DNA of 49,695 nucleotides. Source: an uncultured Candidatus Saccharibacteria bacterium (GTDB lineage Bacteria; Patescibacteriota; Minisyncoccia; UBA6257; 2-01-FULL-56-20). The stretch lies in assembly GCA_964418085.1 (NCBI GenBank), contig CAYQKB010000001.1, positions 1 through 49,695 on the forward strand, read 5' to 3'. The number at the start of each line of letters is the position of its first letter. Position 1 is the first letter of the stretch. A program made the position numbers and the translations under genes. This document shows, piece after piece, positions 1,695-30,640 of this stretch. Under the pieces are notes generated by a model, which was not told the origin of the DNA, did not search any database, and saw nothing but the letters and a program-made list of their open reading frames with translations.

Positions 1695-4133
1695 CTAGTT
1701 TACGATTATTTTGAAGTTGTTTGTCTGCCTGGTCCCCAGAGAACCCGTCACCATCTGATTGTTATACGTTTTCTTTGTCGCTGACGCGGAAGCTTTGTAA
1801 TTGAATGTTACGGAACAGGTATAAGGAGCGGTTGCGCTCGGTGTGCACGAAGCGGTGGTACCTGGACTTATGGTTATGTCCGCAGGCGCGGGGTTTGGCG
1901 CCGTCAACGTCACTGACTGCGGCACTGCACCGGCTACCATGGTTACCGTCACCGTAATTGGTACTGCCGTTGCACTGCCCCGAGTAAGAGTAATGTTTGA
2001 AAGTGTGCTTGGCAGAGAATAATCGAATGTCGGAGCATTCACGGTCAAGGTAAAGCTCTTGCTGTGTGAAGGCGAACTTCCGGTGATAGTAATCGTGTTA
2101 GCGCCAAGAGCTGCATTGTCAGCCGCAGAAAATGTGAGCGTAGTAGTGCACGTCGGAGTACACGAGGTTGCAGAATAATTCACGGTGACACCGCTGGGCA
2201 ATGCAGAATTGGTGAAGTTCACCGTTCCCGCCCCCGAAACAATCGTAGCGGTGATACTTGTATTTGCGGACGCGCCAGCCCGAAAAGCGGTGACATTCGC
2301 CGGAGTGGAAAGCGAATAATCAAACGGCTGCGGATTCACTATTAAATTAAACGTGGTGGTTTGCGAGCCGCCGGTCACGGTGATTGGATACGTTCCGGCG
2401 GGCGTCGTCGGGAAGGAAGTGGTAATGGTAAGCACGCTTGAGCACGTCGGAATACAAGGATTATTCGTGAACGCGGCCGCTGCACCCGCAGGCAAACCGG
2501 ATGCGGTCAACAAAGCATTTGATCCCGTACCCGAAGTCAAAGAGCGGGTAACGGTTGTATTCCCTGCTGACCCCTGTGTAACCGTAATTGAGCCGGCATT
2601 CGACAACGTATATGTAAAAGGCGAAGCACTGTAGATAATGCGAAGCGCGTCGTTCGATTGATTCGCGGTATAAATGCGATCATCTTCATAATCGAGCCCA
2701 ACCGTTTTTTGAGAAAAATTATAATGCGTGACGTCGTGACGCGTCATGTTAAGAGGGTCGGAGATATTCCATACCTGAAAGGGGTCATTCGAATCAGTAG
2801 TCCCGATAAATGCCAAACTCCCTATTACTCTCACCGTCGAAATTATGGAACCGGATTGCATGGAAATATCGGCAGAGCCTTTGAGCTGCGGCGAAGAAGG
2901 ATTTGAAACATCAATCACGAAAAATTCCGGCCCGCTCGGATTCCTGTCTTTTCCGAGATAGAGATATGCGCCGACGACGTCGAGCGTCTCCGCGTCTTGA
3001 GTCCCGCCCACATCCATGAGTGCGAGCGGAGCAGGAATGCTCGCGGGATTCGTGACGTCTAAAACAATCAGATCGGTTGTATTCCCGGACGTCGCTAGAT
3101 ATGCAATCTTTTTTTGCACACCACCCACCATCTGGGTACGCACCTTGATCGTATTTATATTGTGATTCAGTTTTTTGCTTCCGACCCAAACAGGGTGCAA
3201 TGGATCCGAAACATCGAATACATGAAATTCATTTGCTCCTCCTGTAAGAAGTCTGTGCGTCCCAACATAGAGAAAATTACCGTAGAAATAAATGCTTCTT
3301 CCTTGCGGACAGGAATTCGGGCACGTGCCGGAAACGGCGGGAAGTGTGGCAGAAGCGACCACCACCGGAGCAGTGCTTAAATCTTTTGCCTCCTGAATAA
3401 CCATGAGCTGTTTAAGCGGCGTCGTAGTTAAATCATTGCTCGCCACAAAGGCATAAAAATAAGACGGTGATTCAATTGCATCAACTGCGTTCAGTCCATC
3501 TCCCGTGTCAAGACTCCACGAAAGCACGGGTGGAGTTGAAACATTCGCGTTCCGTGCATCAAAAATAAAAAAGTCGGGTTTATTTGAGGCGCTCGCGGTA
3601 CCTGTCATAAAAACAATCTTTGGATCTACATCAATGCCGGTCGCCGGAATACCGGACGGACTGAAATCAACAGAATTGAAATTGTCCGGATTGTTCCAGG
3701 AGACAAAGGATGGCGTCGCAGCACAATCCCCTCCCATCGCGATTGCTTCAGCCGAATTTGTGAGCAAGGTGGTGTATTCCGTTTTTTCCGGACGCACCGG
3801 AGACGCCTGCCAGACGACAGTGCTCGATACATACTTCAAGCAGGGCGAAATGTCATTCACGGATATTTGCGTCCGCTGATAATCAGAATCCTGAGCGGAA
3901 AGCGAAGTGGAAGTTGCGGAATTCCAGTCTTGCGCCGCTTCGGACTTCAGAGTTTCAATGCCTTTCTCCGCTTTCGAAACTGCCTGGCTGGAGAGTTGGG
4001 TATCAAGAGCAACTGCCTGATCGCCAAATGCAATTATCGCAACACCTCCGATTATGAGCACGAAAAAAGAAAATGCGATGAGTATTTCAATAGTACTGAA
4101 CCCTCTTTTTTTTATAAAATTTTTCATTATCAA
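1695..4133 (-). CDS. Giant pilin-like protein: prepilin N-terminus, LVIVD-repeat beta-propeller-like region, three Ig-like C-terminal repeats
   Basis: The N-terminus KKRGFSTIEILIAFSFFVLIIGGVAIIAF is pilin-like. LVIVD-like motifs recur (FHVFDVSDP, LIVLDVTNP, FFVIDVSNP, FQVWNISDP). There are three roughly 95-aa repeats starting FDYSL/FTYTL that are rich in T/S/C. Confidence 0.75.
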   Translation of the reverse strand: MIMKNFIKKRGFSTIEILIAFSFFVLIIGGVAIIAFGDQAVALDTQLSSQAVSKAEKGIETLKSEAAQDWNSATSTSLSAQDSDYQRTQISVNDISPCLKYVSSTVVWQASPVRPEKTEYTTLLTNSAEAIAMGGDCAATPSFVSWNNPDNFNSVDFSPSGIPATGIDVDPKIVFMTGTASASNKPDFFIFDARNANVSTPPVLSWSLDTGDGLNAVDAIESPSYFYAFVASNDLTTTPLKQLMVIQEAKDLSTAPVVVASATLPAVSGTCPNSCPQGRSIYFYGNFLYVGTHRLLTGGANEFHVFDVSDPLHPVWVGSKKLNHNINTIKVRTQMVGGVQKKIAYLATSGNTTDLIVLDVTNPASIPAPLALMDVGGTQDAETLDVVGAYLYLGKDRNPSGPEFFVIDVSNPSSPQLKGSADISMQSGSIISTVRVIGSLAFIGTTDSNDPFQVWNISDPLNMTRHDVTHYNFSQKTVGLDYEDDRIYTANQSNDALRIIYSASPFTYTLSNAGSITVTQGSAGNTTVTRSLTSGTGSNALLTASGLPAGAAAAFTNNPCIPTCSSVLTITTSFPTTPAGTYPITVTGGSQTTTFNLIVNPQPFDYSLSTPANVTAFRAGASANTSITATIVSGAGTVNFTNSALPSGVTVNYSATSCTPTCTTTLTFSAADNAALGANTITITGSSPSHSKSFTLTVNAPTFDYSLPSTLSNITLTRGSATAVPITVTVTMVAGAVPQSVTLTAPNPAPADITISPGTTASCTPSATAPYTCSVTFNYKASASATKKTYNNQMVTGSLGTRQTNNFKIIVN

Positions 4134-15349: not shown

Positions 15350-15499
15350 TGATGTATGGTATAAGTTTAATTTCGACTTTTTATAATCATACCACGCTGT
15401 CCAAAAAATAAAATATATCGTATCTCCTAATATTATATTTCTATCTTATCTCTAAGCTCTTATCTCTTGTCTCTATTTTCTAAGTACTATTTTCTAGTC

Positions 15500-15642
15500 T
15501 CATTTCCCCAGTTGGTAGAGCATCTGGACTTCGCGCGGAGACAGCGCCCGGTTGCTTGCCCGGAGCTTGTCGAAGGTGCTTGCCCTGACTCGTCCCGAGT
15601 ATTATCGAGGGAGCTTGTGGAAGTGTAGACGCACACGTCGTC
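15500..15642 (-). pseudogene. Orphan LamG-tail fragment: DDVCVY, a 71-nt insert, then NRALSPREVQMLYQLGK-stop
   Basis: The minus strand encodes DDVCVY at 15625-15642 and NRALSPREVQMLYQLGK* at 15500-15553 in a different frame. They are separated by 71 nt, exactly at the Y|N junction of the conserved LamG module tail DDVR(I/V)YNRALSxREVQxLY. Confidence 0.55.
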
Positions 15643-15669
15643 GAGGAAAGCAGTAAAAAAACGGAGTCA

Positions 15670-15915
15670 TTATCGCGAGTGCTTTTGCTCAAGCTTTCGC
15701 ACGCGCATCTCAAGGGCGTCAAAACGCTCCTTCCAGTCAGAACCCAAAGACGAAATTTGGAGTTCTACACGGTCAAAACGGTCGTTCACCTCCGCATTGA
15801 ATTTTGTTATATCAGCATTAGTAGCCGCGAGTTCTGCTTTTGTCGCCGTCTTTTCAAAACCGGCCGCCACCATCTGTGCCAGCTCATCTAATGTAATATT
15901 TTTTGCCTTTGCCAT
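15670..15915 (-). CDS. Small coiled-coil protein, unknown function
   Basis: An 81-aa ORF with heptad-like charged sequence (DRFDRVELQISSLGSDWKERFDALEMRVRKLEQK), lying between two orphan LamG 3' fragments. Confidence 0.45.
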   Translation of the reverse strand: MAKAKNITLDELAQMVAAGFEKTATKAELAATNADITKFNAEVNDRFDRVELQISSLGSDWKERFDALEMRVRKLEQKHSR

Positions 15916-16082
15916 ATGCTTATAGTAGACGTTGAAATGGATTTGTCAATCTCCATCTTCTCCGATGCCCAAGTCAGCCGGGTCTTTCTCTCTTCGGTGG
16001 CAGCGGATAAGACAGATCAGCCCCTATACAGTCTTATCCATCCTCTCTATTTTCTAAGTACTATATTTCCGCTGCGCCCCTC

Positions 16083-16166
16083 TGTCATTCTCGAGCGCCG
16101 CGTTCGGGAATCCAGACCATTCCCAACTCAACCCTGGATCCCCGGGCTGCTGCCCGAGGATGACAG
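16083..16166. repeat. Composite palindromic (REP-like) element, copy 1
   Basis: TGTCATTCTCG..CGGGAATCCAG ... CTGGATCCCCG..CGAGGATGACA: two hairpins with inverted TGTCAT/ATGACA ends. Same family as 18711-18784. Confidence 0.6.
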
Positions 16167-16171
16167 AAAAA

Positions 16172-16225
16172 CTACCTCCCCAAGTTGTAGAGCATCTGCA
16201 CTTCGCGGGGAGAGAGGACGCGGTT
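16172..16225 (-). pseudogene. Orphan (displaced) LamG 3' end: NRVLSPREVQMLYNLGR-stop
   Basis: The minus strand reads AAC CGC GTC CTC TCT CCC CGC GAA GTG CAG ATG CTC TAC AAC TTG GGG AGG TAG. It begins immediately after the GIY-YIG stop codon, in the same frame. Confidence 0.55.
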
Positions 16226-16486
16226 TTACCCTGTGAAAAACGATTTGAGTCTTCGACGCAAAGTAATTTTTCCACGAAAAGTTTTTAATGATTTTTCACG
16301 CCGGCGGGCATCCTCTTCATTAAGACACGCTTCATAATAAATAAGTGTTAATGGTCTGCGACTTTTCGTGGAAATTACTTTGCCTTTTTGATGTTGCTCA
16401 AATCGTTCGCGCAAATTATTCGTAGAGCCAGTGTATAGCTGACCATCTTTCAGACTTTTTAAAACGTAGGTATAAAAGAATGGCAT
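16226..16486 (-). CDS. GIY-YIG nuclease family protein (86 aa)
   Basis: FYTYVLKSLKDGQLYTGSTNNLRERFEQH..., the GIY..YIG/YTG motif followed by the conserved R and E, matching stand-alone small GIY-YIG proteins. Confidence 0.8.
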   Translation of the reverse strand: MPFFYTYVLKSLKDGQLYTGSTNNLRERFEQHQKGKVISTKSRRPLTLIYYEACLNEEDARRREKSLKTFRGKITLRRRLKSFFTG

Positions 16487-16570
16487 AAAAATTTGCGCGA
16501 TTTCACAGGGTGTCCCCTGTGAAATAGCCGTCGCGGCTAAAATTTTTTGGAAAAATTTTTTTCACAGGGT
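16228..16570 (-). mobile_element. About 343-nt mini-element carrying the GIY-YIG gene, with 13-nt terminal inverted repeats
   Basis: ACCCTGTGAAAAA at 16228-16240 and TTTTTCACAGGGT at 16558-16570 are reverse complements. An internal copy forms the hairpin TCACAGGGTGTCCCCTGTGA at 16502-16522. It is inserted between a RIY-coding remnant and an NRVLS-coding remnant. Confidence 0.55.
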
Positions 16571-16589
16571 GTAGATGCGGACGATGACA
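16571..16589 (-). pseudogene. Degenerate DDVRIY-coding remnant directly after the LamG gene stop
   Basis: The minus strand GAT GTC ATC GTC CGC ATC TAC (DVIVRIY) starts inside the TGA stop of the 749-aa gene, out of frame. It is the upstream flank of the GIY-YIG element. Confidence 0.45.
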
Positions 16590-18839
16590 TCACCGCCCAA
16601 GGTTGTATAACATTTGAACTTCCCTAGCGCTCAAAGCTCTATTGTAAATGCGGACGTCGTCGAGGGAGCCGGGGAAGAAGTTGCTGCCACTTAGAGAAAA
16701 TTTCTGTACAAGTGCGCCAATCGAGGTTGTATTCAGAGTTGTAGTAGCGGCCGTGTAGCTGAAATTTGTCGCGTCTAAGGATCCATCAATATATAATTTC
16801 CCTGCTCCCTGATTATCCATCCAGACGATATGGTGCCATCTGTTATCAAAAACATTACCGGTTGAACCAGTATTGAGTTCTATAACACCAGCATCGGACT
16901 CAATAGAAATTCGAATATTTTTACTTGGAGCAACTCCTGTGCGGATAGCGAATTGCGAAACTGCGTTCGAGGTATTACCTTCACAAAAGATGCATTCCGC
17001 CTGATTTATTGTTAGTCCTTTGACCCAGAATGTAACGCTGTAGGGAGTTGTGGTGCTGTAAATGGGCAAATTGTTGTTATAAGTAACACCAACATAATCA
17101 TTCACCCCATCAAACCTGAACCCCTGCCCAATCTTCCCAGCAACCGAAACCGTCGAAGAAGTCATATTCGTCATCGTCCCTGTGTTTCTGTTCCCGCTCA
17201 TGTCGAAGGTCTGCCCTGTCGCCCAGTTCGTATTCTGTCCGTCAAATGTCCAGTAGCCGACGAGGCCGGAGGTTAGGGACATGACAGGAGAATTATTTAT
17301 CTTTGCCTGGCCGAGCTGGTAGAGCATCTGCACTTCGCGGGGAGACAAGGCGCGGTTGTAGACGCGGACGTCGTCAATAAGACCATTGAAAAATGCTGCG
17401 CCTTGGAATGTTCCTATGGTAATTGTCTGATTGGAAACTAGTGTCCCTGTTCCCGTTGACGCACCATCAGATGCGCCATTTAGATAACAATTGATTGTCC
17501 AGGCGGAACTAGAACCCGTACGGACAACAACAACATGATACCAAGCATTAATTTTTAATGTAGTATTACAAGTGACTATCATCGCAGCACTTCCTCCTGC
17601 GTGTACGTAGCCAACTTTTCCAGCAGTTCGATTCATTTCCAAGTCCCATTGTGCATTTCCTGCCCCATTACCATTTCCAATGATAACAGCGTTACCTGCG
17701 GCGACAGTTTTAGTATTAATCCAAGCGGAAATTGTTAAATCTCCAGTCAAACTAAGACTAGCCGGCGAGCCAATATTGACTCTATAATTCACCCCGTCAA
17801 ACTTGAACGCCTGCCCAATCTTGCCGGGCACGGGCACAGTCGAAGAAGTCATATTCGTCATCGTCCCGGTGTTTCTGTTCCCGCTCATGTCGAACGTCTG
17901 CCCTGTCGCCCAGTTCGTATTCTGTCCGTCGAAGGTCCAGTAGCCGACAAGGCCGGAGGCAAGACTTACAACCGGCGAGTTGTTGAATTTTGCCTGGCTG
18001 AGTTGGTAGAGAGTTTGGATTTCGCGGGGAGATAAAACGCGGTTGTAAATGCGGACGTCATCAATGAGACCCTTAAAATATTGAGCATTAAACGCTCCGG
18101 GCCTCCCAATCGCAGATACTTGAGTTGCAGGCAAATTTGGAGTTGCAGATAATGTAGTCAATACTGATGATTTCAAAACACCGTTAACATAAAAAGAAGG
18201 AGAGCTGGTCCCTACTTGAGTCACTACGAGATGTGTCCACACATTTGCAGTCAAAACAACTGCGCTTGTATCATATCGCACATAACCCGTCGATCCTCCA
18301 GTCCATAACGTAAGCTTCCCTGCCGTATTATCAAATTCTCTAAATTGGGTCGCCCCCGAATCTTCCATACCATAAATTGTCTGCGTAACTGCAGTGGATA
18401 GGATTTTAATCCACGCACTATAGGAAATATTAGAAGAGTTTAAAGAAGCCACAGATCCAAGATTTACCCTATCATCTACTCCGTCAAACTTGAACGCTTG
18501 TCCCATCTTGCCGGGCGCGGGCACAGTGGAAGAAGTCATATTCGTCATCGTCCCCGTATTTCCATTCCCGCTCATGTCGAAGGTCTGCCCGGTTGCCCAG
18601 TTGGTGTTCTGTCCGTCGAAGGTCCAGTAGCCCACGAGGCCGGATCGAAGCGTCATGGTGGGAGAGTTGTTGACCACTGCGGACGCGTGGGCTTGGAAAA
18701 CACAGAGTATTGTCATTCCCGCGAAAGCGGGAATCCAGGTTAATAGAAGAATCTTTTTGGATCCCCGCTTCCGCGAGGATGACAAAAAAGATCTTATCCA
18801 CAAAACAATGCCTGACTTTTTTTTGGTGTTTATTAGCAT
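16590..18839 (-). CDS. Secreted protein with four LamG / concanavalin-A-like lectin modules (start uncertain)
   Basis: Three 230-aa modules begin NNSP..SGLVGYWTFDGQNTNWATGQTFDMSGN.NTGTMTNMTSST and each ends LIDDVR(I/V)YNR.LSPRE(I/V)Q.LYQL. A fourth, divergent module ends LDDVRIYNRALSAREVQMLYNLGR. The N-terminus is signal-like (ILLLTWIPAFAGMTILCVFQAHASA). Confidence 0.8.
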   Translation of the reverse strand: MLINTKKKSGIVLWIRSFLSSSRKRGSKKILLLTWIPAFAGMTILCVFQAHASAVVNNSPTMTLRSGLVGYWTFDGQNTNWATGQTFDMSGNGNTGTMTNMTSSTVPAPGKMGQAFKFDGVDDRVNLGSVASLNSSNISYSAWIKILSTAVTQTIYGMEDSGATQFREFDNTAGKLTLWTGGSTGYVRYDTSAVVLTANVWTHLVVTQVGTSSPSFYVNGVLKSSVLTTLSATPNLPATQVSAIGRPGAFNAQYFKGLIDDVRIYNRVLSPREIQTLYQLSQAKFNNSPVVSLASGLVGYWTFDGQNTNWATGQTFDMSGNRNTGTMTNMTSSTVPVPGKIGQAFKFDGVNYRVNIGSPASLSLTGDLTISAWINTKTVAAGNAVIIGNGNGAGNAQWDLEMNRTAGKVGYVHAGGSAAMIVTCNTTLKINAWYHVVVVRTGSSSAWTINCYLNGASDGASTGTGTLVSNQTITIGTFQGAAFFNGLIDDVRVYNRALSPREVQMLYQLGQAKINNSPVMSLTSGLVGYWTFDGQNTNWATGQTFDMSGNRNTGTMTNMTSSTVSVAGKIGQGFRFDGVNDYVGVTYNNNLPIYSTTTPYSVTFWVKGLTINQAECIFCEGNTSNAVSQFAIRTGVAPSKNIRISIESDAGVIELNTGSTGNVFDNRWHHIVWMDNQGAGKLYIDGSLDATNFSYTAATTTLNTTSIGALVQKFSLSGSNFFPGSLDDVRIYNRALSAREVQMLYNLGR
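16593..18671 (-). repeat. Three tandem 690-nt coding modules (18671-17982, 17981-17292, 17291-16593)
   Basis: The first 200 or so nt of each module and the last 90 or so nt of modules 1 and 2 are near-identical at the DNA level, while the interiors diverge; the tail of module 3 is conserved in protein but more divergent in DNA. The differences seen are mostly synonymous. Confidence 0.7.
18711..18784. repeat. Composite palindromic (REP-like) element, copy 2, inside the 5' end of the LamG ORF
   Basis: TGTCATTCCCGCGAAAGCGGGAATCCAGG...TTGGATCCCCGCTTCCGCGAGGATGACA. Its translations give the familiar repeat-derived peptides IPAFAGMT and SRKRGS (gene frame) or LDSRFRGND (another frame). Confidence 0.6.
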
Positions 18840-22180: not shown

Positions 22181-22209
22181 ATAGATGCGGACGTCATCAA
22201 AGGTGCCGC
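22181..22209 (-). pseudogene. Isolated LamG-tail remnant (GTFDDVRIY) upstream of the 1032-aa gene
   Basis: The minus strand GGC ACC TTT GAT GAC GTC CGC ATC TAT matches the conserved nucleotide motif GA(C/T)GACGTCCGCAT(C/T)TA(C/T). The downstream sequence is unrelated to LamG tails. Confidence 0.35.
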
Positions 22210-22247
22210 TTAGTATCTAACGTAAATTATCTTTTAACTTTTATATA

Positions 22248-22283
22248 ATAATCAATTATCAGACGGTCGTTCAATAATTGATT
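22248..22283. promoter_or_regulatory. 36-nt palindromic repeat, copy 1 (candidate operator)
   Basis: ATAATCAATTATCAGACGGTCGTTCAATAATTGATT: 10-bp arms AATCAATTAT/ATAATTGATT around a 14-nt spacer. Identical to 22970-23005. Lies about 230 nt upstream of the 1032-aa gene start. Confidence 0.45.
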
Positions 22284-22316
22284 TTTCTCTCCAACACAAA
22301 AACCTAAAATACACGC

Positions 22317-22937: not shown

Positions 22938-22969
22938 TGTTTATAATTATTTTAATTCCCTTCGATAAG

Positions 22970-23005
22970 ATAATCAATTATCAGACGGTCGTTCAATAAT
23001 TGATT
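22970..23005. promoter_or_regulatory. 36-nt palindromic repeat, copy 2 (candidate autoregulatory operator)
   Basis: Identical 36-mer located 33 nt upstream of the PaaX-like gene start. Confidence 0.45.
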
Positions 23006-23074
23006 ATTTGGTTTTTATATCCACGCACACCCACAATTAAAACTCAACGCAATTCAAAAAAACGAGATCAATCT

Positions 23075-30566: not shown

Positions 30567-30640
30567 TGGGGGATCGTCTAATGGTAGGACAGTGGCCTTT
30601 GGAGCCATCAATCTAGGTTCGAATCCTGGTCCCCCAGCCA
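30567..30640 (+). tRNA. tRNA-Gln (anticodon UUG)
   Basis: Hand-folded cloverleaf: acceptor TGGGGGA/TCCCCCA (U1-A72, G73), D arm GTCT/GGAC, anticodon arm GTGGC-CTTTGGA-GCCAT, T arm CTAGG-TTCGAAT-CCTGG, with an encoded CCA. Confidence 0.9.

Follow-up and report, generated by a model that had tools for sequence, protein, structure and literature searches.

Probable replacement of a LamG gene tail by a small GIY-YIG cassette in Candidate Phyla Radiation bacteria

The 3' end of a LamG gene in the window, which is the whole stretch of 49,695 nucleotides analysed here, has probably been invaded by a small selfish DNA cassette that carried a replacement tail and displaced the native one. The observations behind this view are the anatomy of the locus, the recurrence of its junctions in other lineages, the limits of a block shared between loci, the native or foreign identity of the tails, a covarying structure and paralogous copies bounded by repeats.

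Anatomy of the locus in the window

All the parts listed by the earlier note, namely a LamG gene, a remnant, an inverted-repeat element, orphan tails, a REP-like hairpin, an 81-aa ORF and a third copy, are present on the minus strand and were confirmed base for base (Table 1). The LamG gene encodes a secreted protein of 749 aa with three Laminin_G_3 domains (Pfam PF13385, E 9e-76, 3 stretches), each terminating in DDVR[IV]YNR.LS..E[IV]..LY, and it ends with DDVRIYNRALSAREVQMLYNLGR and a TGA at 16592-16590. In the head remnant that follows, the strictly LamG-like part is the final 12 nt only, GTCCGCATCTAC. The next element had been described as one unit of 343 nt with 13-nt inverted ends; these ends are perfect, and the description can be refined to two nested units, each with its own repeat pair. 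One is a miniature, in which a repeat pair around two small hairpins gives a three-way junction in the predicted DNA fold, and equivalents of it are found in L001, L010, L014 and L175 (related loci are given by L numbers). The other is the GIY-YIG unit proper, with a single-strand fold z of -10.3, whose left repeat is ACCCTGTGAAAT (16511-16500) and whose right repeat TTTTTCACAGGGT (16240-16228) doubles as the final codons of the ORF (FFTG and the stop). The GC content of this ORF is 37.5%, against 45% for the window. Its 86-aa product matches the PDB UPF0213 proteins 1zg2 and 1ywl (E 1e-10 and 2e-8), and the nuclease looks active, judging from the GIY and YIG tyrosines, Arg, His and Glu, which are invariant or nearly so in 25 homologues.

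Table 1. Position of the features of the LamG locus in the window
Feature	Position	Strand	Basis or remark
Possible solo head GTFDDVRIY, intergenic	22181..22207	(-)	weak match
LamG host gene, intact	18839..16590	(-)	ORF list
Tail 1, in-frame functional 3' end (NRALSAREVQMLYNLGR, stop)	16590..16643	(-)	coding AAT AGA GCT TTG AGC...
Head remnant GDVIVRIY	16571..16591	(-)	overlaps TGA of tail 1
Inverted-repeat element, 343 nt	16570-16228	(-)	perfect 13-nt inverted ends ACCCTGTGAAAAA / TTTTTCACAGGGT
ORF-less double-hairpin miniature, 57 nt	16514..16570	(-)	DNA fold -19.7 kcal/mol, z -6.75 to -8.4
GIY-YIG unit proper	16226..16511	(-)	left repeat, 5' leader, ORF, right repeat
GIY-YIG ORF, 86 aa	16486..16226	(-)	PF01541, E 2.2e-15
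Tail 2, orphan, native-type (NRVLSPREVQMLYNLGR, stop; AAC CGC...)	16172..16225	(-)	begins exactly at Asn codon
REP-like long hairpin, GTCAT.C.CG...GGAATCC type	16075..16171	(-)	inverted repeat; DNA fold z -3.4
ORF81, small coiled-coil-like protein	15670..15915	(-)	no Pfam or NCBIfam hit
Head 3, LDDVCVY, ends at Tyr codon	15625..15645	(-)	LamG-like similarity reaches ~15658
71-nt insert between head 3 and tail 3	15554..15624	(-)	direct repeats
Tail 3, orphan, native-type (NRALSPREVQMLYQLGK, stop; AAC CGG...)	15500..15553	(-)	tblastn E 3e-7

The REP-like hairpin, a single copy in the window, lies directly 3' of the stop codon of tail 2 and splits a flank that is common to tails 2 and 3 (16032-16067 against 15458-15493, 86%). 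Tail 3 is 85% identical over 48 nt to the end of domain 2 and then runs into this homologous flank. ORF81 has no family match in Pfam or NCBIfam, and a homologue of it is found at L001:339-584 (tblastn 57% identity, E 2e-24), directly upstream of the L001 LamG gene. The 71-nt insert is made up of a directly repeated 14-15-nt motif, GGAGCTTGTCGAAG, in two copies that code for FDKL/ELVEG-type peptides; it is unrelated to the GIY-YIG element, has no significant fold (z 0.07) and has no second copy in the window. The solo head in Table 1 likewise stops at the Tyr codon, lacks a following tail and is a weak match (tblastn E 0.078; blastn 19 nt at 95% identity, E 0.012). As the earlier note had stated, the two breaks in the window each fall exactly between the TAC and AAC codons (Tyr/Asn, the slash marking the break). 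Chance is excluded as the source of the repeats and orphan tails: the 343-nt element contains every one of the four matches to the 11-mer repeat core found in 49.7 kb (0.84 expected), and the orphan tails score tblastn E-values of 1e-6 and 3e-7.

Junctions, shared block and tails in related loci

Homologous GIY-YIG units or ORF-less miniatures are located at LamG 3' ends in about ten other Candidate Phyla Radiation (CPR) contexts, mostly with the same Tyr/Asn boundary, and support the first of the two readings in the earlier note. The GIY-YIG proteins that are 98%, 85% and 84% identical to that of the window all lie directly after a multi-LamG gene, with the order of parts as in the window and with different neighbour genes; additional LamG-linked cases are L016, L017, L095/L191, L096, L099 and L135. 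Recurrences of the left junction TAC/ACCCTG come from 7 lineages and those of the right junction, GGGTA(A)/AAC, from 8, with neighbouring genes that differ, and the GTCCGCATCTAC core is kept at the left border of the element throughout the LamG-associated clade. A head remnant is also present in L001-8 (DVMVRIY), L014 (DDINVRIY), L016, L017 and L095/L191. These recurrent junctions support site-specific insertion at approximately CGCATCTAC/AACCG, but the conserved break is not universal: in L096 the insertion lies after the stop codon and the second tail has 9 codons only, L095/L191 keep a native-type tail 1 without tail 2, and the close homologues in L175, L179 and L183 are not at a Tyr/Asn junction. 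The comparison of LamG tails with related genomes yielded occupied sites in these contexts and no empty site, and relatives of the window's third LamG domain in the protein collection do not exceed 48% identity. The nuclease gene occurs alongside uninterrupted AACCGC-type ends, both at the internal domain ends of the same LamG gene and, in L014, as the terminal tail of a second LamG gene, so either the junction sequence is insufficient for insertion or insertions there are purged.

Loci whose LamG bodies fail to align still share the block of head, tail 1 and GIY unit at 79-85% identity. Between the window (16671-16219) and L002 (2040-2493) the identity is 84.8% over 461 nt, the match running from the head motif into the first 7 nt of tail 2, whereas their LamG proteins are 45% identical overall and the cores of their third domains give no blastn match and are far more divergent in the BLASTP alignment. 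The same block limits are found in L010/L014 and L099/L135, each at 79%. Tail 1 of the window, which is homologous to tail 1 of L001 and L002, lies inside the 85% block. Tails 1 and 2 of the window agree in 15 of 17 amino acids and differ at 23 of 54 nucleotides. Compared with the internal domain ends of the host gene, tail 2 reaches nucleotide identities of 0.92 (window), 0.87 (L001) and 1.00 (L017), against 0.62, 0.59 and 0.67 for tail 1, and it shares 27 consecutive identical nucleotides with the end of the host's second domain. Between sister pairs, identity is higher from tail 1 to tail 1 (0.74-0.87) than from tail 2 to tail 2 (0.56-0.67). Because the tail behind the element matches the host's own internal domain ends better than the in-frame tail does, we interpret tail 2 as the displaced original and tail 1 as a replacement imported with the element; the contrast between native and foreign tails is weak in L010, L014 and L016. 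The Arg codon beside the junction is AGR or CGG in 8 of 8 imported tails and CGC or CGA in 8 of 8 displaced ones. In L014, four of the first six nucleotides differ between the tails (AATAGA vs AACCGC) and the next 17 are identical. For comparison, 35% of the Asn codons in the large ORFs of the window are AAC and 19% of the Arg codons are CGC. The shared block and the host-like displaced tail favour the proposal that a replacement 3' end was supplied and the old end pushed downstream.

Tandem LamG paralogues that decayed by deletion, with the conserved LamG 3' end as a hot spot for unrelated small repeats, would offer another explanation, in which no tail was carried: the in-frame tail would be that of gene 1, and genes 2 and 3 would have left the orphan pieces. 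The order ORF81, head 3, tail 3 does resemble an ORF81 plus a deleted LamG gene, a second LamG gene lies downstream in L014 and L191, and the downstream flank is common to tails 2 and 3. The arrangement in L095/L191 (native tail, head remnant and GIY, with the displaced tail absent) also fits, and unrelated inserts occur in orphan ends too, such as the 71-nt repeat, the REP-like hairpin and a 135-nt insert in L175. However, random deletion gives no account of heads that end at Tyr and tails that start at Asn in 7-8 lineages. It also leaves unexplained a block bounded inside LamG motifs while LamG bodies and downstream genes differ, as well as the host-like identity of the tail after the element. 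We consider paralogue decay unlikely, but the third copy and the origin of the composite may still be due to it. The earlier note proposed repeated insertion here, yet the third copy may be the relic of a second LamG gene, split by the unrelated 71-nt repeat, because the ORF81 homologue precedes a LamG gene in L001.

A quite improbable explanation is that the LamG ends are recombination sites of an integron-like cassette array, into which the GIY-YIG gene, toxin-antitoxin pairs and ORF81 were integrated serially by some site-specific recombinase, with a copy of the site between each. It draws on L010, where YafQ-like and nucleotidyltransferase/HepT (MNT-HEPN-type) modules are each followed by an orphan LamG tail or head plus tail, on L175, where a HEPN/nucleotidyltransferase pair is flanked by two ~290-nt repeats, each an orphan head plus tail, with HicAB modules alongside, and on a PemK toxin gene after the GIY gene in L014. 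Nevertheless, integrases and recombinases are absent from the Pfam-scanned window ORFs and the called genes of the fetched loci, the sole transposase seen being a Y1 fragment on the border of L014. These genomes commonly carry toxin-antitoxin genes as filler, and the order of parts is, in our reading, unlike the product of a single crossover within a 12-nt core.

Folded structure and mobility of the GIY-YIG family

The small GIY-YIG family (UPF0213, SLX1-like) has covarying inverted repeats at its borders and a conserved Watson-Crick three-way junction. The ends, leader and coding sequence of the core unit, about 290-300 nt, pair into this junction, which is closed by inverted repeats of 12-14 nt. 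Of 80 loci from many phyla, 60 have the ORF bracketed by a perfect repeat of at least 9 nt, compared with none of 80 control windows. In helices P1 and P3 together, 96.9% of cells are paired and 39 cells are changed on both sides, compared with 7.3 +/- 2.2 in shuffles (0 of 500 as high) and at most 7 in slid controls; wobble pairs occupy only 5 cells in the whole structure scored for P1 and P3. P2 forms an uninterrupted Watson-Crick helix in 46 of 47 units, 9-18 bp long with a mean of 13.5 bp (9.6 for non-cognate pairs), and covaries across units, and helix 1 shows 22 two-sided changes and no one-sided change. Miniatures fold as P1 plus two hairpins in all seven tested (z -6.9 to -8.4). The GIY-YIG unit and the ORF-less miniatures behave as discrete mobile DNA: L023 and L032, on two contigs of one MAG, are 98% identical over 302 nt, the identity ending at the repeats and the flanks being unrelated, and the miniatures occur as 19 distinct copies in both orientations, with a tandem copy number of 1 vs 2 between near-identical contigs. 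At 58-68% identity, however, the majority of family members do not adjoin LamG genes, which speaks against the cassette reading.

It is highly improbable that the inverted repeats and helices represent mRNA structure that regulates or stabilises the transcript of a housekeeping nuclease whose adjacency to LamG is coincidental. The pairing does take in the 5' leader and coding sequence and encloses the start codon, and the C-terminal peptide S[YF][FL]TG is conserved, but the miniatures retain the three-way junction with no ORF, in either orientation and in variable number, and the homology of the two copies in one MAG stops at the repeats. Moreover, the near-absence of G-U pairs suggests a constraint on the DNA or on both strands.

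Proposed mechanism and known analogues

The other possibility raised by the earlier note was a reservoir of alternative cassettes. Read as programmed switching of the LamG C-terminus (phase or antigenic variation), it is hardly credible. LamG proteins are probably variable and exposed on the cell surface, and the locus does hold several neighbouring tails that point the same way. However, the tails encode almost identical 17 residues, so that switching would change almost nothing, all are in direct orientation with no recombinase identified among the Pfam-scanned window ORFs, and a diversity-generating retroelement or shufflon is unlikely since the tail differences are not confined to adenines and no reverse transcriptase or invertase is found among the Pfam-scanned neighbouring ORFs.

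For the invasion by a tail-carrying cassette, we propose that a clade of the unit became specialised for the LamG domain end, whose nucleotide sequence GTCCGCATCTAC/AACCGC(G) (Tyr/Asn) is conserved. The travelling composite would consist of a recoded replacement tail with its stop codon, a head remnant of 12-20 nt, optional miniatures and the GIY-YIG unit, and break-stimulated gene conversion would copy it into a naive LamG end, using the conserved head as left and the native tail as right homology arm. The 86-aa protein would make the cut, presumably at the target, and the transfer could be either homing-type repair or a transposition-like reaction. The host protein would remain full length, closing with the imported tail, and the native tail would be moved downstream as an untranslated orphan. 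Recoding of the imported tail just 3' of the junction (AAT AGR or CGG vs AAC CGC/CGA) would block re-cutting and mis-pairing. The stack may have grown later, as more miniatures, the REP-like hairpin and the 71-nt insert arrived and an adjacent LamG copy decayed.

The nearest known parallel comes from fungal mitochondria, where a mobile endonuclease ORF can replace the C-terminus of a gene, supplying a foreign end and displacing the native one, and where the argument from native versus foreign identity has also been used (PMC3630166). Classical GIY-YIG homing enzymes have a DNA-binding domain that gives them long recognition sites, whereas the 86-aa protein is a catalytic domain only, which speaks against the proposed mechanism. 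In the literature we found no report of C-terminal replacement by a mobile nuclease ORF in bacteria. Tail replacement in a bacterial surface-protein gene would represent a behaviour previously known from fungal mitochondria.

The LamG gene end and the fragments behind it

The locus lies on the minus strand and consists of an intact LamG gene followed by a series of gene-end fragments. In what follows, tail 1 is the in-frame 3' end of the LamG gene, tail 2 the orphan end after the element and tail 3 the orphan end further down; a head is a LamG-like piece that ends at the Tyr codon, the junction is the boundary between the Tyr and Asn codons (TAC/AAC), a unit is a GIY-YIG gene with its bounding inverted repeats, and a miniature is an ORF-less double-hairpin derivative.

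Features of the LamG-end locus, with the sequences at the junction and at the ends of the element
Feature	Position	Strand	Remarks
LamG host gene, 749 aa	18839..16590	minus	three Laminin_G_3 domains; ends ...GSLDDVRIY NRALSAREVQMLYNLGR and stop (tail 1)
Head remnant GDVIVRIY	16591-16571	minus	overlaps LamG stop codon
Element of 343 nt	16570-16228	minus	starts right after TAC; perfect 13-nt inverted ends; 86-aa GIY-YIG ORF
Miniature, 57 nt, ORF-less	16570-16514	minus	first of two adjoining units
GIY-YIG unit proper	16511-16228	minus	right repeat codes for C-terminus FFTG and stop
Tail 2, orphan, NRVLSPREVQMLYNLGR and stop	16225-16172	minus	follows TAA of the ORF; begins exactly at Asn codon
REP-like hairpin	16171-16075	minus	downstream of tail 2
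ORF81	15915..15670	minus	between REP-like hairpin and third head
Third head LDDVCVY, 71-nt insert, tail 3	tail 3 at 15553-15500	minus	in this order
LamG Tyr/Asn target			native form ...GACGACGTCCGCATCTAC/AACCGCGCGCTG...; recoded form after junction AATAGAGC
Native-type sequence that an unoccupied gene body would join directly			AACCGCGTCCTCTCTCCCCGCGAAGTGCAG
Element end sequences			CAGGGTAA on one side, ACCCTG on the other
Synonymously conserved LamG ends	18044, 17357, 16225, 15553	minus	also internal ends of L001, L010, L014, L017, L095, L096

All of the parts that the earlier note had listed, from the LamG end and its remnant through the element, the second tail, the REP-like element and the 81-aa ORF to the third copy, are present on this strand. 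A search of the window for further copies of the inverted repeats, as the note had proposed, returned four copies of the repeat core, every one within this element, compared with 0.84 expected by chance; together with the tblastn E values of the orphan tails (1e-6 and 3e-7), this confirms the original observation. The description of a single 343-nt element with 13-nt inverted ends stands as far as the ends are concerned, which are perfect, but the element really consists of two adjoining units, the 57-nt miniature and the GIY-YIG unit. Within the head remnant, the strictly LamG-like part is limited to the last 12 nt, GTCCGCATCTAC.

Tails 2 and 3 have a common downstream flank (16067-16032 versus 15493-15458, 86% identity), and the copy of this flank behind tail 2 is interrupted by the REP-like hairpin. 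A homologue of ORF81, 57% identical, is located directly upstream of the LamG gene in L001, one of the other contigs bearing homologous GIY-YIG genes (L-numbers; those at LamG ends are from the Candidate Phyla Radiation, CPR), suggesting that the third head and tail of the window may be the remains of a second LamG gene. The 71-nt insert in this third copy, which contains two direct copies of an unrelated short repeat and has no second copy anywhere in the window, again breaks the sequence exactly at TAC/AAC. A decayed GIY-YIG unit is rejected as its origin, because the insert neither folds nor resembles the unit in sequence, and the two have no repeat in common.

Several further observations were made in the window. 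An isolated intergenic fragment coding for GTFDDVRIY (22181-22207, minus strand), upstream of a 1032-aa gene, ends exactly at the Tyr codon and stands alone, lacking a LamG body in front and a tail behind; its similarity is weak (E 0.078 in tblastn, and E 0.012 in blastn for 19 nt at 95%). Close by, two palindrome-containing copies (AATCAATTATTGAACGACCGTCTGATAATTGATTAT; 84% identity over 64 nt) at 22225-22286 and 22945-23008 lie on either side of a 206-aa ORF with a PaaX-type central Cas2-like domain (PF20803, E 4e-11), and these copies may be operators or cassette ends. Finally, the signal-peptide region in the 5' part of the LamG gene (about 18710-18740, minus strand) codes for WIPAFAGMT, the translation of a common small palindromic repeat that gives SFPRKRESR and VIPAKAGIQ in overlapping frames. 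These 27 nt are also present, with 96% identity, in the LamG gene of L001 (L001:123-149), so a repeat element seems to be embedded in the LamG coding sequence.

Recurrence at LamG ends and the contrast between the two tails

The exact sequence of the GIY-YIG protein of the window is not on record, while 306 homologues are. Three of them, 98%, 85% and 84% identical, are each encoded directly downstream of a multi-LamG gene, on contigs that differ in their other genes (an AAA ATPase; YafQ-like and HepT/MNT toxin modules; PemK and a second LamG gene). The parts recur in one order: first an intact tail closed by its stop codon, next a head remnant whose last codon is TAC, then repeats of the ACCCTGTGAAA type, sometimes accompanied by miniatures, followed by the GIY-YIG ORF and finally a second tail that opens with AAC. 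Further cases, among the matches listed in one-genome-per-species and metagenome scans, are L016, L017, L095/L191, L096, L099 and L135. The earlier note had staked its reading on the repeats or the GIY-YIG gene accompanying LamG tails elsewhere, and this association indeed recurs in other loci. Among the matches listed, most relatives at 58-68% identity, from many phyla, do not adjoin LamG genes, indicating that the LamG association belongs to a subclade; the metagenome matches listed for the single window protein include few close relatives.

Site-specific insertion between the Tyr and Asn codons is likewise supported by these loci, since the TAC/element junction is found in seven lineages and the element/AAC junction in eight, in differing genomic contexts. 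The exceptions are L096, where the insertion follows the stop codon, and L175, L179 and L183, whose close homologues are located away from the junction. The arrangement also varies in other ways: the head remnant is missing from L099 and L135, L095/L191 retain a tail of the native type and lack a second one, and L014 carries a miniature alone at the Tyr/Asn junction with its GIY-YIG unit after the stop codon of tail 2. The position right after a tail's stop codon is a second favoured spot for units and miniatures (L175:293, L010:3927 and the L014 unit). In L010, extra orphan LamG ends follow the YafQ-like and HepT/MNT modules, and in L175 a HEPN/MNT pair lies between two repeats of about 290 nt, both made up of an orphan head and tail with a miniature.

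Other features of these loci are recorded here as side observations. Toxin-antitoxin modules (YafQ-like, MNT/HepT, HicAB, HEPN/MNT) are located between successive orphan LamG ends at L010:3260-4860 and L175:290-4000, and PemK occurs in L014; the layout in L010 and L175 resembles a cassette array, but no recombinase is among the called genes. In L175, the head of an orphan LamG end is interrupted between DDVR and Y by about 135 nt that contain internal hairpins (1900-2050 and 3070-3220), a third kind of small insert in LamG end fragments. A second GIY-YIG unit is found directly upstream of the LamG gene at L191:1429-1702 and L095:471-744; this unit has lost its stop codon (GGGTTGA), so gene callers merge GIY-YIG and LamG into one 815-aa product. 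L009 and L001, from different samples, share the same GIY-YIG unit, tail 2 and about 22 nt more, after which the downstream sequence is wholly different (L009:282-360 versus L001:3262-3340), which reveals that the right-hand context of the cassette is polymorphic in nature.

The earlier note had also suggested that each insertion supplies a replacement 3' end and pushes the old one downstream, and comparison of the tails agrees with this. The tail after the element resembles the internal domain ends of its host gene (nucleotide identity 0.92 in the window, 0.87 in L001 and 1.00 in L017), whereas the in-frame tail does not (0.62, 0.59 and 0.67, respectively). This contrast between native and foreign tails is clear in these three loci and weaker in L010, L014 and L016. 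Between sister loci, tail 1 is more similar to tail 1 (0.74-0.87) than tail 2 is to tail 2 (0.56-0.67). In the window, tails 1 and 2 agree in 15 of 17 residues, yet 23 of 54 nucleotides differ. The Arg codon at the junction is recoded as well: all eight imported tails use AGR or CGG there, and all eight displaced ones use CGC or CGA. In L014, four of the first six nucleotides differ between the tails and the next 17 are identical. Native LamG ends read AAC CGC almost invariably, while in the large ORFs of the window AAC makes up 35% of Asn codons and CGC 19% of Arg codons.

The limits of the sequence shared between loci are equally informative. Positions 16671-16219 of the window form a single collinear block with L002 2040-2493 (84.8% identity over 461 nt), which includes the head motif, tail 1, the remnant, the miniature and the GIY-YIG unit and ends 7 nt into tail 2. 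Beyond the block the two contigs are unrelated; their LamG proteins are 45% identical overall and the third-domain core gives no blastn match. The blocks shared by L010/L014 and by L099/L135 have the same limits; they start 21 nt ahead of the Asn codon in tail 1, end at the 3' end of the GIY-YIG gene and are 79% identical. Such blocks, bounded on both sides within conserved LamG motifs, are the pattern that homology-dependent copying from an occupied to a naive end would leave.

As a separate observation, LamG domain ends keep their synonymous sites (CGCATCTAC AACCGCGCGCT) across distant genomes, despite the 45% GC and AAT preference of the window. This conservation suggests either gene conversion among LamG ends or a role of the sequence at the DNA level.

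Fold of the unit and its minimal nuclease

The GIY-YIG unit has marks of mobility of its own. Of 80 loci, which come from Patescibacteria, Desulfobacterota, Bacteroidota, Bdellovibrionota and further phyla, 60 have a perfect repeat of 9 nt or more (usually 12-14 nt) located 10-60 nt upstream of the ATG, compared with none among 80 control windows. This repeat pairs with the final codons of the ORF (S[YF][LF]TG and stop), and both arms covary. Among 70 distinct flank pairs no target-site duplication was seen, and all that recurs is TT[CT] to the left and [AG]AA to the right; a short motif left of the insertion, T[AT]N, is weakly defined. Two copies on different contigs of one MAG, L023 and L032, are 98% identical over 302 nt, and the identity ends 3-4 nt outside the repeats.

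The unit of the window folds far better than shuffled sequence (z -10.3), and in an alignment of 47 units three helices make a three-way junction. Helix P1 is formed by the left repeat and the 3' end of the ORF, P3 by [A/C]GATTTGAG (codons R-F-E) and CTCAAATC[T/G] (codons L-K-S), and P2 by the leader just past the left repeat and codons about 20-27. For P1 and P3 together, 96.9% of cells are paired and 39 cells are changed on both sides, compared with 7.3 +/- 2.2 after shuffling (none of 500 reached the observed value) and at most 7 two-sided changes in slid controls. P2, scored by a register-free helix search, is an unbroken Watson-Crick helix of 9-18 bp (mean 13.5 bp) in 46 of the 47 units, with many compensating variants such as TCGCGCAAATT/AATTTGCGCGA, TAGCTTGAGGTC/GACCTCAAGCTA and TTCCGCAAATTTT/AAAATTTGCGGAA. 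In the 16 units with a variant coding strand, cognate helices have 12.9 bp on average and non-cognate pairs 7.1 bp. P2 does not emerge from RNAalifold applied to the whole-unit alignment, in which the leader is out of register by one column. Hardly any G-U pairs occur, suggesting that folded DNA, or both strands, are under constraint.

Close to GIY-YIG genes we found 19 distinct ORF-less miniatures, in both orientations. All seven that were folded give P1 and two hairpins (z -6.9 to -8.4). Their tandem number differs between near-identical contigs, with two in L001 and one in L002. A scan of the element against Rfam 15 gave just two chance-level matches (E 0.42 and 0.71), far under the gathering scores. 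Phage and plasmid collections contain 3 and 1 distant matches, respectively, and this near absence argues for a chromosomal element rather than one borne by phages or plasmids. In the LamG-associated clade, including L010, the GIY-YIG coding sequence holds an extra helix of about 25 bp (window 16258-16282 with 16361-16383, minus strand; codons KVISTKS with TFRGKITL), which is not obvious in the wider family.

The sole ORF of the unit encodes a GIY-YIG domain (PF01541, E 2e-15, 57 bits versus a cut-off of 22.6), and no DDE, HUH, serine or tyrosine transposase is encoded in it. Catalytic residues are all conserved: among 25 homologues, Y7, Y18, G20, H32 and E52 are invariant and R28 is nearly so. 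The catalytic domain alone covers the 86 aa, with no C-terminal DNA-binding domain and linker of the I-TevI type, and the protein scores 20 bits against the group I intron endonuclease model (NCBIfam TIGR01453), whose cut-off is 56. Profile searches match this stand-alone domain to 1zg2 (E 1.4e-10), 1ywl (E 1.8e-8) and, weakly, SLX1 (E 2e-3). The first two are the PDB entries of the UPF0213 proteins BH0048 (Bacillus) and EF2693 (Enterococcus), and the E. coli YhbQ family is another of these prokaryotic stand-alone groups. On the strength of these similarities the protein is placed in the UPF0213/SLX1-like minimal branch; Slx1-like domains that stand alone in prokaryotes have been called the GIY-YIG fold in its minimal form (PMC1564403). 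The one-genome-per-species data contain more than 586 matches. Source records of such genes use the name 'GIY-YIG nuclease family protein' or the erroneous 'excinuclease ABC subunit C'. We found no report on function or mobility of UPF0213-type proteins in the literature, and none, in the literature searched, of the LamG-end arrangement in bacteria or of repeats and miniatures around UPF0213 genes.

Proposed gene-end replacement and its relation to known elements

The best-supported reading of the LamG-end element is homing by gene conversion. A self-folding GIY-YIG element would have specialised on the LamG end, and as a composite with a recoded spare tail it would spread through break-stimulated gene conversion, in which the head and the native tail act as homology arms and the native tail is pushed downstream. 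The closest parallel is the mobile endonuclease ORF (mORF) of fungal mitochondria, which replaces the C-terminus of its host gene and is known from atp6 of Allomyces macrogynus, atp6, atp9, cox2 and nad3 of Glomus sp., atp9 of Rhizopus and cox2 of Mortierella (PMC3630166). Both involve an endonuclease gene (of the GIY-YIG type in Glomus atp9) that has entered a conserved gene close to its 3' end; the C-terminal piece brought in reads in frame, with divergent DNA and conserved protein, and the native C-terminus is duplicated downstream and matches relatives, which the imported piece does not (PMC3630166). The same native-versus-foreign argument, with the same kind of numbers, established replacement in Allomyces atp6 and in Glomus atp6, atp9, cox2 and nad3 (PMC3630166). 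Unlike the fungal elements, however, the one described here resides in a bacterial chromosome (CPR/Patescibacteria), targets a repeated surface-protein domain end rather than a respiratory gene, encodes an 86-aa catalytic domain only, in an ORF not fused in frame to the host gene, and has inverted repeats, a three-way-junction fold and miniatures. Cleavage by the Allomyces element has been shown biochemically; for the window element it is a prediction.

Classical GIY-YIG homing endonucleases, many of which reside in group I introns, have no inverted repeats or miniatures. With I-TevI, I-BmoI and the phage T4 Seg proteins our element shares the GIY-YIG catalytic fold, a defined position in conserved coding sequence, co-transfer of flanking markers and an element allele that differs from the target beside the junction. 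The classical enzymes have two domains, about 200-270 aa and a long asymmetric recognition site (PMC3664794). The lack of a DNA-binding domain in our protein, and the several close homologues located off the junction, speak against the homing reading. Two further points against it are that no empty allele was found in a search via the third LamG domain of the window, for which the best relative is 48% identical, and that uninterrupted AACCGC ends coexist with the nuclease gene, in other genes or other domains. What the sequences show are the anatomy, the recurring junction, the extent of the shared block, the native or foreign character of each tail, the covarying fold and the paralogous copies bounded by repeats. 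We infer that the nuclease makes the break and where it cuts, and the core unit itself may move either through repair of the homing type or through a reaction on folded DNA that resembles transposition.

REP/RAYT and IS200/IS605 systems are a further comparison. In these, the gene for a Y1 HUH transposase is flanked by cognate palindromes, and small hairpin derivatives are dispersed or in tandem. Our element is similar in its flanking palindromic sequences and small hairpin derivatives, and in having no visible target-site duplication and a Watson-Crick-paired structure as expected of folded DNA, but its enzyme is a GIY-YIG nuclease and its three-way junction runs through the coding sequence, unlike their separate end hairpins. 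The unit contains no Y1 HUH transposase, the sole Y1_Tnp fragment being at the outer edge of L014, and the left motif T[AT]N is too weak to decide whether insertion follows a short motif as in those systems. The analogy with elements integrating at tRNA genes, drawn in the earlier note, is apt in that incoming DNA supplies a functional gene end and the old end becomes a downstream orphan. Such elements rely on an integrase of the tyrosine or serine type and on att cores that are identical, whereas here the two tails are non-identical in nucleotides. Integration of the tRNA type is rejected, as no integrase was found and the sole tRNA gene of the window is at 30567. An integron cassette array (IntI, attI, attC) is not supported, since neither the window ORFs scanned nor the genes called in the fetched loci include an integrase. 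A diversity-generating retroelement or shufflon is rejected, since the scanned ORFs include no reverse transcriptase or invertase, the differences are not adenine-specific and the tails are all direct. A group I intron or intein is dismissed because 345 nt including the ORF is too small for an intron with an endonuclease gene, the intron endonuclease model scores far under its cut-off and the head remnant follows a stop codon.

We thus read the locus as homing-type C-terminal replacement, now in bacteria and with a minimal nuclease, and consider it a substantial possibility that the underlying unit belongs to a class of mobile DNA not described before. More tentatively, and with greater doubt than confidence, we speculate that the UPF0213/SLX1-like GIY-YIG genes of this subfamily may be autonomous members of an undescribed class of prokaryotic mobile DNA, in which a structure-specific nuclease would process the three-way junction of the element and its miniatures without target duplication or a known transposase, and to which the LamG clade would have added a 'spare tail' that makes coding insertion harmless. 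A three-way junction of 51-59 nt offers a concrete candidate substrate for the bacterial members of this nuclease family, for which none is known. GIY-YIG domain proteins are listed in one paper among the genes exported from Patescibacteria by horizontal transfer (PMC12455944). If our reading is true, a function and a life style would be assigned to a great many genes that at present carry the label 'GIY-YIG nuclease family protein' or 'excinuclease ABC subunit C', and in bacteria too a selfish element would have a way of entering coding sequence without killing the gene, by bringing its own recoded gene ending, as has so far been documented for fungal mitochondria. It would also account for the orphan gene-end fragments and toxin-antitoxin pile-ups behind LamG genes in CPR genomes, which is of relevance both to annotation and to how the LamG surface proteins of these bacteria diversify.
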